From Octopus vulgaris (lineage: Eukaryota), in contig CATOCA020000001.1 in NCBI GenBank assembly GCA_951406725.2, forward strand, positions 7,626,001 to 7,690,000: a stretch of 64,000 nucleotides of DNA. Reading direction: 5' to 3'. The number at the start of each line of letters is the position of its first letter. Position 1 is the stretch's first letter. This document shows, one piece after another, positions 16,301 to 34,300 of this stretch. The notes beneath the pieces are model-generated. The model was not told the DNA's origin, searched no databases, and saw only the letters and a program-made list of their open reading frames with translations. The position numbers were made by a program, and so were the translations under genes.

Positions 16301-19300
16301 CATTTTACACTTCATAGTATAATTTCCCTATCTCTGTTAATGGTTTATATCTTATTATTGTAAGACATTCCTATCATCAATGGCCAACTGCTGACCACTA
16401 TAGGTTTCGTCGACAGTTTTATACTTTCTACAGTGGTCTTATAAAATGGCTCAATATTTAGGTCCATAACAAAATAGACTGATCTTCCTAAACCTCCTTT
16501 TTCTATTAAGACAACCTTCTTGATCTATCAATGTTGCATTCATCTCATTTAATTATCACATGTTAACACCTTTTATTTCTTTTCTTTTTTATAGCTGGGT
16601 TAAACCTATGAGATAGCATTGTTCCCTCATCAGTAGACTTCACTAATCCAGTGTTAACCATGTTGGTCATAAATGCCCTTGACACAAACTCATGTCATAC
16701 CACTTGAAGCAGGATCAACACACACCTGTTTTCTTTGTTTTAACCTTTAATTTTATCTATGCAACTCACAGTTCACCAGAATTTCATCTGATTCATAAAA
16801 TATTTTGAGACTCCTTAATGAAACCGCTTTCATTGCAGGTGAGCAATGATTAGTTTTACAGAGGTGAAACAGAAAGTGATAACAAGGGTCCTAAAACACT
16901 GTATACTTGCACAAAACACCTTTAACAACATGCAAATGTTTATACACAGATTATTGCAAAAGAAAAATATTTGAAAAGGTACAAAAGAAGTGATATTCAA
17001 GAATATATAAACAAGATGGTGATATAGATCAAACTTCAAGCACCAAATCTTGTTTTTGCCCAGAAGTTTTGACTTGGCAAATGCTTATTGCCCATCCTCG
17101 GTTTCTGCAATGACATCAATGCCTCTACTCTTATTAGACAATGTGGGATTGTAGCATCGTCCTCAAATTATTTTTTAACTTTTGGCATAGTTTCTCCTAC
17201 TATTTTGAACCTTACCTGTTTCTGTTGACCTTTGACATATGTCAGACCGCATCAAGTAGTTGCTTTAGACAGCATTCTTGACCAAGTAATTAGTCCATCC
17301 AGTCTATCCAGAACTAATTGTATAAACATTTGATCTCTTCTTCTTATTTTTATGTCATCCATAAATGCCTTCTTAAGTGATTTCCCTTGAGTAATTTCTT
17401 CTGATAAATCTGCCGATCCCCATAAAAGCATCCCCATAACAAGCACAAACCAAGTAACGGATATTGTGCAATCTACAGCTATTCTAGTTCCAATGTTGGG
17501 CACACGAAAATCTTTTTCTAGTGCTTTTGCCACATTAAAATGTACTCAGGACCCTTTATAAAGTGGTTGGTGTTAAGAAAGGCATACTACCATAGGAAAG
17601 GTGGAATGTTTAAGGGAGATGTGTTTCTCAAGCAATCGAGGTGGACAGTAATTCTGAATAAGGACATGGATAGTGACCACCCAGCCAATTCGATGATGAA
17701 GACACTATAATCGATTGCATTGTATCTTGCACCCAATCTTGAGGAGAGAGAAAGAGAGCAATTGTCTCAGCAGCAGACCAAAGTCTCCTACTGGGATAAA
17801 CACAACGTTTAGGGGATGTAATGATATATTTACTATCAGTGAAAAAAAGAGAGTGTGTTCACACTTGTAACAATTTTCAACTTAGTCACCTTGTTAAAAA
17901 ATGACCGACAACAACAACAACAATTAGGAAACTTATTAAAATGTACAACAAACAAGCTCTCTCATTATCTCATCTGTTTTTGCCTTTAAACGACAAATTG
18001 CTTTCCTTTATTCCAAAGACAATATGAAGTCTGTTGTGTTTTCTAATTTAGCCATTTTACCAACAGCGCCAACACTGCTGGACATTTTATTAAATTTCAA
18101 ATCAGTAATATCAATGGGCTTGTAGATGCATCCATAGTAAGAGAGAGAGAGAGAGAGAGAGAGAGAGAGAGAGAGAGAGAGAGAAATGACAATATGGCAA
18201 CGAGATGATAGAAAGAGAGAATATTCCCCTTAAGGGGAGCGAACCGCTTCAGGTTTTATATTTTATCTCTTGTACTTTTTCCTTATCGTGTGAGATCTTT
18301 TTCCTGTGTCTCATGTTTCCCTATTTCCGTAAAATCCCTTTATTGGATATTCCTGCATTTGTAGTAGAACAGAATTACTTTGTAGCTAACTATTCGAATG
18401 AAATATAGCAATAGAACCGCTTCTCAGTGATTCACACAAATTATGTAGTTCAGGTGGAGGTAAAATTTGTAGAAGTCAATTAGATACAGTTATTTTATAC
18501 TCACTAAGTGGCTGAGCCTCTGTCTGGGATGCCTTGTCTTCAACCTTTGGACGCACTGAAATAAACATTTCCAAGTTTTATACTTCATAGTAAAACTTCT
18601 TTATCTTTATGAATAATTCTGTATTTTATTATTGTGAGACATTCATGTAATCAATGGTCAACTGGTGAGTAATATGGCTTTGGTCAGCATTTTTACACTC
18701 TCTACCATGGGACCGTGTAATATACCCAATATATAGGTCTACTACTAAATAGACTGACCTTCCTCAATCTCCTCTCTCTATTAAGACATCCTACATAATC
18801 TAACAACATTGCACTTATCTCATTTAATAATCCCTTGTTAACACTGCTAATCTCCTTCTTATATTTAATCTAATCTATGACATGATTGTCCTCTCATCTC
18901 TAGACTTCACTAATCAACATTCTTCTCGTTTTCTACTTAATTCCATGACAACCAAATTGGTCCTCAAAAATCGGACCACAATACCATGACACATCGTTTC
19001 AGGTAGGATAAACATAACCACGCTCTCTTTTTTAAAGGTCACTGTTGGCAACCTTTAATTTTAACTGACCACATCACACTTCATCAGAATATCATCTGAT
19101 TAAGGAAATATTTGAAAATATTTCAATGTCATTCATTTTCCTTAATAAACGACTTTTTTTCCGGTGAGCAATGATTAGTTCTACACAGGTGGAGAGGTAA
19201 GCGATAACAGGTATCCTGAAACACTGTACTTTTGTACAAAACATCCTTAACTACAAAATAACTGTTCATGTACACATTATTACAAAGGGGTTATATCCAA

Positions 19301-31300: not shown

Positions 31301-34300
31301 AATAAACATTTACAAGTTTTACATTTAATAATAAAATTTCTTTATCTTTATTTTTATTAAACTCTATCTTGTTATTGTGAGACATTCAATTCCTGTCGTT
31401 ACTGGTCAACTGTTGACCATTATGGTTTTGGTCAATATTTCTGTACTTTCTAAAGTGGTCCCATGTAATAGCCCAATATGTCCACAATAAAACAGACTAA
31501 CATTTCTAAATCCACTCCCTCTCTCTCTCTCTCTCTCTCTCTCTCTCTCTCTAAAAACACATTAAATATTCTAACAATGTAGCAATTATCTCATTTAATT
31601 AACACTTGATGACAGTTTTCTCTTAGCTTTGTCTTTCTTTTCTTATAACTGTGCCAAATCTATGGCATGGCACAGTCCTCTCATCTCTAGAATTCACTAA
31701 TCAACATTCCTCTCTAATTAAGTAAAACTGAGCCCATAAAGACATGTCCTTTATGTGTATACCCTCCACCCGCACACAATCTGTCCCCTAAAAACATCTG
31801 CACAAGCCAAATTCCATACACCCTTCCCCAACATGATCCCTAACAAGATATAAAATGTAAGGTGAGGGTACACGATGTTCCTATGACAAAATAAGTTTAC
31901 ATTTCAGACATACAAATGTAAGAGAGTTAATGAATTATAGCTTATTAATTATCATGATAATTGGGTATATATGTGATACAATGGCACTGTGCTTGACGGT
32001 GCAATACTAGATATCAATATAGATTGTATATAATCTGAGTAAAGAACATATAACCTTCATTACTATGAATATGATTGTGTCTCAGCACAGCTAATATTAT
32101 GGTAGTTCCATGAGCAAACGAAGAAAGATATAACCAAGTCCACTGCCAAATACTAATGATTAATTCATTTCCTGGTCAAATAACAATGACTATCTTTCAT
32201 TAAATAATTTGAACGCAACAATCAAGACCAAAGGGTGAAACACTCAGAAAACTGTGCCTCTTTTAGCATTAATATCATCTAAAATCTAACAAGAGTGAGA
32301 AAAAGAATGACTATATGGATGGTAAATGTTGTTCAAACAATGTAATAAGTGTATATTATATATAGTTACAAAGAAGGATTTGTGTATTCAAGTCATATTC
32401 AATTTCTGATTGTATATTTTGTATAAACACCAATAATTTGTTTAAATATAAACAGATATTCACGGTTCAATACTAAATTTAACATTTAATAAAATTAAGT
32501 TCATGATGAATATTCTTATACAGAGTTAACATTTAATTATAATTTTCTAATTTGCAACTACAAAATGTATTCTAACCAGAGACATTCAGGGTACACAACC
32601 CCAGAAAATACAAAATATTACGACAGACATCTGGCTACATAACAACATCAAGAATAACCTATCAGAAAACTTACGAAAAATCTTAGTAGAAAAACAAACA
32701 ACTATCTTATTAACTCACGAGTTTACACCTAAAAAAATAAATTATAGTTCCCTCTTCCAGAAGACAATATTAACTCTATTGTGGCTTTTAATTTATCCAT
32801 TTTACCAAACATGTTAACCATGACTTTATGAAATTTCAGTAATATTTTTAATACAATTACTTTAGAGCTAACCTTTCAAATGGAAATTAGAAATGGGATT
32901 TGTTCTCCACCATTCTAATACGCAAAATAGCTGAGGTGAATGTAAAATCTATAGAAATTAATTAAGATCTCTAATTTTAAACTCATCAACTGTCTCTGCC
33001 ACAGTCTGCACTCCCTTCTCTTCAAACTTTGGACTCTCTGAAATATGTGTCTCCAAGTTTTATATTTATTTATAGCACAATCCCTTTATATTTATTAATA
33101 ATCTATATTTTATTAATGAGAAACATTCATACCATCAATGGCCAACCAGCGATCATAATGTTTTGGTCAATATTTTTATACTTTCAACAGTGGACCCATG
33201 TAATAGCCAATATTTAGCTCCAAAACGAACTCTAGTTGATCTTTGTAAATTTCCTCTCTCTGTTAAGATATCCTACATAATCTAACAATGCTGTAATTAT
33301 ATCACTTAATTATCACTTACTAACAGTTTATCTGTAGGCTTTGGTTTCCTTGCTTATATCTATGCCAAATCTATTGCATTTTCAAAACCCTGATCTTCAC
33401 TAACAACCTGTTTGATTCCAGTGTCAACAAATTTATTCATCAAAGATATAACAACAAACACATGTCACAACCACTTCAAGAAGGAGAAACATACACCTAA
33501 TCTCTTTGTTAAACATTGTTGCTGATAATCCCTAATTTTAACTTCACAGTTCACCAGAATGTCATCTCATTCAGGATATATTTGAAGGTTTCATGATCTG
33601 GTTGCTTGACAAACAAAACTGTCTCTATTAGCCTTAATATCCTCCAATTACAAACATAACAACATGGAATTGTGTGTTAAAGTCTCTCAAACTAGTGACA
33701 AATAATTTTACTCCTTTAAAATATTCTACTAAATTTAATACTTTACCAAAGATGACACTGATGTCCTTGTAAGTACTGTTGTATTTAATTATCTTTCAAT
33801 AACTAATTATCTTCTAATAACTCATAATTAATTATAGAGTTGATGGAGATTTATTGATACTTCAGTTACTCACTAATTATCTTGCAGAATCTCCATTATC
33901 TTTATGTTGCAGACTACAACCCTCTTGAAGTGTGACATGTTTCCTACTTGGATAAGGTCAATGTTTAGTGGATGTAGTGTGAGAGATATACTATTACAGA
34001 GAACAGACACTAGGAACACCTTTTATCATAAATCTGCCAGATTATGGCAGACCTCTGTCTACATAACAACATGAAGTATATTATTCTACACAATAAGGGC
34101 AATGGGACAAGCAGGACAAACAGACAGATCAGCAAAGAATATTCTTACCAACTCGACCTCTGCTTGTTACAGGTTTCAAACACCTCAGGCATCGTTTAAG
34201 TGGAACGTTTGAACATTCTTCACATGTCAGAAGGTGTTCACATGGATGAACTTTTGTTGTGGCCTCTTTATTTCTGCACAACAAACATCTGTGGACAAAA

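Follow-up and report, generated by a model that had tools for sequence, protein, structure and literature searches.

Exons homologous to a death-domain exon carry predicted LC8-docking motifs in an octopus family of ankyrin-RING-death-domain proteins

Exons of 51 to 78 nt lying between the RING and the death domain of an Octopus vulgaris gene each carry one motif of the form K/R-x-[VTS]-Q-T (QT exons), and these exons are real features that are spliced and evolve under selection. All are homologues of exon 1 of this gene's death domain, and purifying selection on the motif suggests that they are docking sites, so far predicted, for LC8, which would zip together two chains of an ankyrin-RING-death-domain protein, with the number of exons likely setting the valency; we give this reading a probability of roughly 0.6. 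Here, we describe the gene as found in a 64,000-nucleotide stretch of contig CATOCA020000001.1 (the window), together with its relatives among more than 100 Octopus loci.

Results

Organization of the gene

All exons of the gene lie on the minus strand. A probable first coding exon of 78 nt (63293..63370, with an ATG at 63370) is similar to the N-terminus of family models P0014 and P0027, and is followed by six ankyrin exons. These are located at 53288..53445 (Pfam Ank, E 1e-7; splice sites present), 51699..51744 (a short exon of 46 nt found by tblastn with family models, with AG/GT sites), 49288..49442 (Pfam Ank_4, E 4e-13), 41818..41854 (a short exon of 37 nt, with a compensating indel pair relative to paralogs), 38538..38747 (in which substitutions relative to paralogs are mostly amino-acid-changing), and 36715..36890, the last ankyrin exon, where indels near 36860 and 36741 are present in none of five paralogs and the shifted frame contains stops. 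The C3HC4 RING is encoded at 34149..34288 (Pfam zf-C3HC4_3, E 1e-7). The death domain is split between exon 1 (16211..16282; 72 nt), encoding the first two helices, and exon 2 (13143..13350), which runs to the stop and carries one extra base near 13303 and another near 13292, neither of which occurs in any of seven paralogs. In all, the window copy has eight private coding indels, and its reading frame is shifted in death-domain exon 2 and in two of the ankyrin exons; it is either mis-assembled or recently broken. The ankyrin-RING-death-domain architecture proposed in the first-pass annotation is nonetheless borne out by Pfam domains in the window and in family models.

Seven QT units are located between the RING and the death domain (18505..33037), as that annotation had them, with motifs spaced 17-26 residues apart. 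Unit 1 (EEKGVQTV; 32987..33037) is 51 nt long, and unit 2 (31224..31296) is 73 nt and out of frame in the window copy. Units 3, 4 and 5 (28751..28828, 26070..26147 and 24046..24123) are 78 nt, phase 1-1, and all encode EDRCVQTE; they sit within recent units of 2.1-2.7 kb whose aligned stretches are 90-96% identical. Units 6 (EVKETQTL; 21163..21213), with hydrophobic residues at -4 and +2 relative to the Q, and 7 (EDKASQTE; 18505..18555) are again 51 nt. The Q anchor with T, V or S at -1 and T at +1 is in frame in six of the seven units and, for the seventh, in paralogs: paralogs L060 and L093, like contigs of run X18, have a 72-nt version of unit 2 that stays in frame and reads ADKGVQTD. The pattern [KR]-x-[VTS]-Q-T arises in 0.11% of 20,000 exon shuffles, although the seven exons are copies of one exon and their matches are hence not independent.

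Unit 1 has ATGAGT where a GT donor is expected, as do all 13 fetched copies of this exon type, so it is a pseudo-exon or else a terminal exon with read-through, which adds 10 codons before a stop; the read-through form is present in database model P0029. A U12 AT-AC intron after unit 1 was rejected by comparison with the U12 consensus, the donor being ATGAGT and the next acceptor CAG. The six symmetric phase 1-1 exons described earlier thus reduce to five clean cassettes, with unit 1 lacking a donor and unit 2 having 73 nt. Likewise, a valency of seven is less well supported for the window copy, whose five clean cassettes (four of which pass published position rules) are accompanied by one frameshifted and one donor-less unit.

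Splicing and variation in the family

Contigs from three runs join QT exons at splice sites: 16283-18506 in runs X8, X18 and X16, 18555-21163 in X8, 21213-24046 in X18, and 26145/9-28750/3 in X8, X16 and X18, with all four joints at depth 0 in DNA run X3. The three runs are guessed to be RNA on the strength of these joints, and the joints pool paralogs at a likeness of at least 93%; they therefore support splicing of the QT exons at the level of the family and do not demonstrate expression of the window copy. None of the 15 joints listed (of 277) involves the 31296 or 33037 exon; joints with these exons may lie among the rest, and their absence from this list does not indicate skipping.

The number of QT exons, which had been suggested as worth comparing across paralogs, varies from 0 to 8 per locus. 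Among 53 protein models that combine a single RING with a death domain, 23 lack the motif and just seven contain three or more. Natural variants without Q-T include KASQRV, KAVKTV and RCVKKE. Octopus bimaculoides models carry KEVQT or KGVQT, showing the motif to be kept in models from this species, and isoforms of one gene have two, three or four motifs, so that the variable exon inclusion anticipated earlier appears among database isoforms differing by whole motif exons. Tandem duplication and exon turnover are rampant in the family. A published description of these proteins was not found by title or abstract start, most subscription papers being outside the search, and passages of PMC9334734 do not mention them.

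Relationship to death-domain exon 1

The first-pass annotation counted seven units with one motif each; all seven were located, but an eighth homologous unit, death-domain exon 1 itself (16282-16211), had been overlooked. This exon is homologous to every QT unit, with shared acceptor and donor flanks and a common register, and the mean row identity is 0.65 (DNA about 65%) against 0.28 for shuffled sequences. In a tree, 21 death-domain-type exons split from 84 linker exons with a bootstrap of 92. By these alignments the QT exons are homologous to their own gene's death-domain exon 1 and are not free-standing motifs; the direction, from death-domain exon to motif exon, is inferred. The K at -3, and in one lineage the Q, are inherited from the death-domain helix. 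The most constrained positions of death-domain exon 1 are -6, -1, +2 and +3 (2-3 steps each), which are helix-core positions, and in the QT copies the constraint has relocated to -3, -1, 0 and +1.

The window's death-domain exon 2 fragment alone has no Pfam match, whereas intact relative P0026 scores 27.7 bits with Pfam Death (cut-off 22.6; E 3e-6) and is predicted to form six helices at residues 269-353. Among solved structures, RIPK1 (E 2e-5), CRADD, and ankyrin-3 best match a death domain from the family. Like the octopus family, RIPK1, RAIDD/CRADD and the ankyrins have a C-terminal six-helix death domain; unlike them, the octopus proteins have no kinase, CARD or ZU5, and their ankyrin repeats are separated from the death domain by a RING and a linker built of modular exons. 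The combination of ankyrin repeats and a death domain is reminiscent of sensor-adaptor proteins, e.g. PIDD-type adaptors.

Selection on the motif

Across 51 distinct non-C29 exons, positions -3, -1, 0 and +1 underwent 11 amino-acid steps, whereas neutral simulation gives 31-33 (with each of two seeds, 0 of 300 runs reached so low a count). The remaining nine codons took 75 steps against 74-77 simulated, as in neutral drift. The constraint persists on trees made without the motif codons (Fisher p 0.001-0.002), with significance lost once position -4 is included (p 0.38). Pairwise pN/pS among 15 exon types is 0.29 for the motif and 1.15 for other codons, and pS is 0.68 at motif codons and 0.37 elsewhere, i.e. 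synonymous change is undiminished and amino-acid change suppressed. With synonymous change at the motif codons not reduced, a splicing enhancer was rejected as the source of the constraint. The earlier statement that [KR]-x-x-Q-T is kept while the rest of each exon diverges therefore holds for the non-C29 subfamily, to which the window gene belongs, but fails for C29 arrays, which freely lose Q-T; Q and T vary more than any other position in the compact C29/C27 arrays (33 distinct exons), with 19 steps against 5.6 expected, and C29 arrays include 36-nt exons with no motif.

This behavior of the C29 arrays would suit QT exons that are length spacers or tolerated debris of a death-domain exon, with an LC8-like look inherited from the helix and a constraint arising from gene conversion or mutation bias. 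Rampant duplication and turnover, the loss of donors in some copies, and the commonness of motif-less members point the same way. We nevertheless consider this unlikely, given the suppression of amino-acid change at codons with elevated pS, the movement of constraint away from the helix core, and the presence of the motif in O. bimaculoides.

Likeness to LC8-binding sites

The octopus genome encodes LC8 (83 of 89 residues identical to DLC2). Verified LC8 binders in Table S4 of PMC6607443 include ZFPM1 (SDKGVQTP), gephyrin (EDKGVQCE), BMF (EDKATQTL) and dynein intermediate chain (YSKETQTP), which have 5-7 of 8 motif residues the same as octopus motifs; these are single-site binders in otherwise unrelated proteins, and the likeness is at the level of the motif only. 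With position rules coded by hand from published LC8 rules (K/R at -3, polar at -4, P/D/E at +2, no Pro), four of the six in-frame window motifs pass throughout, the two exceptions being EKGVQTV and VKETQTL (at +2 and/or -4); VKETQTL, hydrophobic at both, is therefore predicted to be a weaker site. In calorimetry many anchor-bearing peptides do not bind LC8, e.g. DAZL VDRSIQTV, which resembles the motif of the 78-nt exons except at +2.

The conserved K-x-V-Q-T could instead be functional for another partner or modification – another peptide-binding domain, a protease site, or Thr phosphorylation – since the selection test reveals constraint rather than a partner, and -4 and +2, which are important for LC8, change freely in the 51 non-C29 exons (12 and 9 steps, with V at +2 in 15). 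However, the spacing of the constraint (-3 kept, -2 free, -1, 0 and +1 kept) and the residues at these positions (K/R; V/T/S; Q; T) match LC8 rules, D/E is present at -4 in 37 and at +2 in 25 of the 51, and near-identical peptides are verified binders. The motifs for TRAF (P-x-Q-x-T), ATM/ATR (S/T-Q) and caspases (Asp) appear to suit fewer exon types, and we regard a partner other than LC8 as improbable.

Disorder of the linker, which the first-pass annotation had put forward for prediction, is indicated in two ways. The P0026 linker (residues 205-263, exactly three QT exons) has pLDDT below 50 between confident domains in an alignment-based model – a single-sequence fold being too poor (mean pLDDT 46) – although the low values are partly due to a gappy alignment, and a charge-hydropathy plot classes 23 of 33 family linkers as disordered. 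Nup159 is one multivalent LC8 client. ASCIZ/ATMIN and KANK1 linker L2 similarly have several QT-anchored motifs in a disordered segment, at short to medium spacing and with strong and weak sites mixed, as presented in PMC10046861 and bioRxiv 10.1101/2025.07.16.665182. The octopus array differs from these in having one motif per symmetric exon, a copy number that varies over more than 100 paralogs, and a motif exon that appears to descend from a folded-domain exon; LC8 binding is established for ASCIZ/ATMIN and KANK1 L2, whereas the octopus sites are predicted.

The RING and Mind bomb relatives

The family is labeled MIB1/MIB2 in databases, and in both groups a RING comes after the ankyrin repeats. 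The final ankyrin repeats, together with the neighboring RING, are colinear with those of a MIB-like octopus protein that has two RINGs (35% identity, E 3e-33), and the ankyrin repeats of MIB1 rank among the top natural matches in both sequence and fold. No Pfam match to the N-terminal, substrate-binding MZM/REP region of Mind bomb ligases was obtained in full-length models P0007, P0027 and P0073. In comparisons with two-RING relatives, RING1 (the ankyrin-adjacent one) outscores RING2 as the match to the family RING in 103 of 104 cases, with one tie, and the window RING is accordingly of RING1 type. It ends C-L-R-C-L and lacks the Pro and the Arg next to its final two Cys residues; C-P-x-C-R is kept in 12 of 51 distinct RINGs from fetched single-RING proteins. 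RING1 of MIB1 is inactive, so ligase activity of the window protein appears doubtful, and its description as a signalling ligase is weakened.

MIB1 and MIB2 end in a coiled coil and a catalytic RING with an Arg after the last Cys, whereas the octopus proteins have the QT linker and death domain there. The QT array thus occupies the place of the MIB1 coiled coil and last RING, which form dimers.

Discussion

Because the motif exons keep the residues that LC8 recognises, the number of predicted LC8 clamps likely differs from gene to gene. In the mechanism we propose, LC8 would dock on the QT exons and pair two chains, the array may have taken over from the coiled-coil/last-RING dimerisation module of a Mind bomb-like ancestor, and death domains paired in advance would lower the signalling threshold for diversified ankyrin sensor domains. 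That LC8 binds but serves transport or localisation (through a dynein or scaffold link) or LC8 buffering, and not death-domain or RING dimerisation, would accord with the many paralogs having one motif or none, but is very improbable given the array's location at the dimer-forming position of MIB1 and the action of LC8, as described in PMC12057147, by duplexing two client chains.

A broader version of the docking-site reading, which we offer tentatively and at somewhat less than even odds, is that octopuses turned death-domain exon 1 into a plug-in LC8 cassette, such that duplication, loss, point-mutation switching on or off, and alternative splicing set dimerisation strength across more than 100 ankyrin-sensor/death-domain receptors – an exon-encoded valency dial in an immune-like family.

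If LC8 does bind, members of the family, with 0-8 sites on a common scaffold, would form a natural titration series in which LC8 valency and spacing can be related to dimerisation and signalling threshold. The family would then also offer a traceable example of how a short linear motif is born when part of a folded domain is duplicated, the switch of the constrained residues being visible. Independent of LC8, a large family of Octopus genes now catalogued as MIB1/MIB2-like ligases proves to be a separate one, of ankyrin-RING-death-domain type, in which the ankyrin exons diverge quickly; it is a candidate component of innate immune or cell-death signalling in cephalopods.

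Organization of the gene and its QT exons

The gene, on the minus strand, probably starts at 63370 and has its stop at 13143; it comprises a leader exon, then six exons encoding ankyrin repeats and one encoding a RING, seven short units (QT1–QT7, at 33037, 31296, 28828, 26147, 24123, 21213 and 18555), and a two-exon death domain. The units and their peptides are borne out as first described, each with one Q-T motif of the type bound by the hub protein LC8 (DYNLL), and motif number varies among paralogs, with 0–8 QT-anchored units per gene (0–6 with a GT donor) in 33 partly fetched genes. 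The first-pass annotation had six units as symmetric phase 1-1 exons; five prove to be clean phase 1-1 cassettes of 51 or 78 nt, but the unit at 33037 lacks a GT donor. AT replaces GT in 13 of 13 fetched copies of that exon type, and the database protein model P0029 reads through such a unit to a stop. The 31296 unit has 73 nt in the window; paralogs, and contigs of X18, a sequencing run guessed to be RNA, have it at 72 nt and in frame. The three 78-nt units are products of recent tandem duplications.

A SINE-like repeat of high copy number, with (GAT)n at its end, is present in each duplicated unit (23470–23730, 25530–25790, 28110–28440 and 30600–30960). Its read depth is very high in all four runs, and it may have promoted unequal crossing-over. 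Inside one of these units lies an insert of ~570 bp (26806–27385) that has terminal inverted repeats and holds a broken frame, which we take to resemble a Tc1/mariner transposase C-terminus. The introns and the downstream region are filled with simple repeats, (CAT)n and pyrimidine- or purine-rich, in tracts of several kilobases (42277–48700, 51770–53110, 53480–61200 and 5200–9500).

The gene belongs to a large family. Death-domain exon 2 has at least 131 genome matches (150 of 157 candidates scored) and the RING exon has 60, both mostly on contigs C29 and C31. Octopus protein matches are labeled MIB1/MIB2-like in 36 of 38 cases in one search (the other two being generic ankyrin proteins), and in 38 of 38 and 23 of 23 in two more. 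Because some O. vulgaris-labeled models may stem from the same assembly, O. sinensis and O. bimaculoides models were used as outside evidence. On contig C1 (102.71–102.73 Mb and 216.93–216.97 Mb) death-domain exon 2 copies lie in tandem runs, most with internal stops. In models P0020, P0028, P0032 and P0121, family domains are fused to leucine-rich repeats or to different C-termini, or an LRR adhesion-type GPCR carries a related death domain; genuine shuffling or annotation artefacts could account for these fusions.

The window copy has eight coding indel events, spread over four exons, that none of the 4–7 paralogs aligned at each shares. This amounts to about 8 over 1.7 kb of coding sequence, compared with some 9 private indel sites over 16 kb of non-coding DNA; the non-coding scan is less sensitive, however, picking up just one of the coding events that fell within it. 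A young pseudogene is somewhat less likely than an assembly error, because neutral decay would not concentrate indels in exons and the neighboring copy at C31:7.90 Mb also has private exon indels. Which of the two is correct makes no difference to conclusions about the family.

Splicing and match to LC8 sites

Exon absence from transcripts had been named as grounds for rejecting the array, and the QT exons are joined in contigs from probable RNA, with paralogs pooled. Among the 15 of 277 joints listed, from three runs of three studies guessed to be RNA, QT7 is joined to death-domain exon 1 and 78-nt exons to one another in all three runs, and the QT6–QT7 and QT5–QT6 joints, with CT..AC ends, are each seen in one; depth at these joints is 0 in the DNA run X3. 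Database protein models also include QT exons, and predicted isoforms of one O. bimaculoides gene have 2, 3 or 4 motifs.

Of the peptides in Table S4 of PMC6607443, SDKGVQTP, EDKGVQCE, EDKATQTL and YSKETQTP bind LC8 and VDRSIQTV does not; the paper warns that the anchor by itself is insufficient. By position rules hand-coded from this source, four of six in-frame window motifs qualify. The linker is predicted to be disordered, with confidently predicted domains on both sides, and the genome-encoded LC8 matches DLC2 at 83 of 89 residues, with no differences from residue 33 onward. Multivalent LC8 assemblies are described as governed by spacing and weak cooperative sites (PMC10046861; bioRxiv 10.1101/2025.07.16.665182).

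Selection on the motif codons

Numbering from Q as 0, amino-acid steps at positions −9 to +3 across 51 distinct non-C29 linker exons are 10, 5, 4, 8, 8, 12, 3, 9, 3, 1, 4, 9 and 10. The tested positions, the LC8 anchor (−1, 0, +1) and −3, derive from section 9 of PMC6607443 and were picked after the sequences had been seen. They show 11 steps versus 31–33 in neutral simulation (0 of 300 runs as low with each of two seeds), and the other nine codons, on whose codon steps the simulation was calibrated, show 75 versus 74–77; gene conversion is not modeled. The contrast persists on trees built without motif codons, pairwise pN/pS over 15 exon types is 0.29 at the motif and 1.15 elsewhere, and Q-T is the main form in 11 of 14 non-C29 exon types; a Fisher contrast is lost when −4 is added (p 0.38). 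In death-domain exon 1 it is instead the helix-core positions that are most conserved.

The proposal that Q-T is conserved holds for these exons but fails for 33 C29-type exons, where these two residues are hypervariable (19 steps versus 5.6 in neutral simulation), and the motif is absent from 23 of 53 family protein models. The C29-type loci (L011–L026, on C29 and C27) are very compact arrays with a 150–166 bp period and up to 8 exons, mixing QT, QA, KT, KM and QS variants with motif-less 36-nt exons carrying a C-x-x-C pair; this variability could reflect sites being switched on and off, or gene conversion. LC8 motifs are reported to be mostly conserved over short evolutionary distances only (PMC5746249), which fits a motif seen here solely in Octopus.

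Probable origin from death-domain exon 1

Death-domain exon 1 (16282–16211, minus strand), encoding the first two death-domain helices, has acceptor and donor flanks as in the QT units, and is in effect an eighth unit. We compared 105 distinct in-register exons (185 copies of 51, 72 or 78 nt) from the window and fetched loci, excluding three off-register matches as well as units that are frameshifted or of 36 or 87 nt. The first 13 codons align codon for codon in all 105, and linker types have a mean identity of 0.65 to death-domain exon 1 with flanks (0.28 shuffled). One branch of the unrooted tree (bootstrap 92) parts 21 death-domain-type exons (16 intact-looking, five degenerate) from 84 linker exons, and linker exons of 72 nt, the length of death-domain exon 1, look like intermediates. 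Because death domains predate this linker, we infer that the linker exon arose from the death-domain exon. Upstream of the intact death-domain exon 1, loci L011, L013 and L019–L023 (a 72-nt SLNL.. exon) and model P0054 have another, degenerate copy that lacks Q-T, an independent duplication of this exon.

Comparison with Mind bomb and a proposed mechanism

The octopus family falls outside the Mind bomb family. In 103 of 104 comparisons with two-RING MIB-like proteins, its RING is closer to the ankyrin-adjacent RING than to the terminal one, and its alignment with a two-RING MIB-like protein is colinear. MIB1 RING1 and RING2 are reported to be inactive with UbcH5B, ANK-RING1-2 is mainly monomeric, and the coiled coil and RING3 dimerize and catalyze, with R996 contacting the E2 (bioRxiv 10.1101/2024.03.01.582834). 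The gene had been proposed to encode a signaling ligase; the RING exon is present, but the window RING lacks the Pro and Arg matching the MIB1 catalytic RING and, given the inactive MIB1 RING1 and RING2, ligase activity is doubtful for this copy. It may occur in paralogs with C-P-x-C-R.

The ankyrin exon (38747–38538) and death-domain exon 2 (13350–13143) have diverged further from close paralogs than adjacent intron stretches have; the ankyrin exon is 91–96% identical to four paralogs and nearby intron stretches 94–100%. Seven of seven paralogs match death-domain exon 1 at 100% identity, and the difference suggests diversifying selection or exon-level conversion. The nearest solved structures to the death domain are those of RIPK1 and CRADD.

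We found no description of this ankyrin-RING-death-domain family, or of an exon-per-motif LC8 array, in the literature searched, whose coverage leaves out most subscription papers. The diversified ankyrin region likely senses a ligand: its exon differs from the four paralogs by 40 non-synonymous versus 7 synonymous codons (pairs non-independent). LC8 dimers would likely dock on the linker sites, keeping two chains in register, paired death domains would then nucleate adaptor assembly, and the number of exons and the loss of Q-T would determine its strength; the parts of this scheme established here are anatomy, splicing and constraint. With LC8 binding predicted, the family would work like known multivalent LC8 clients. 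The QT linker stands in place of the coiled-coil/RING3 dimerization module of MIB1, which suggests that LC8 may have taken over the job of that lost module.
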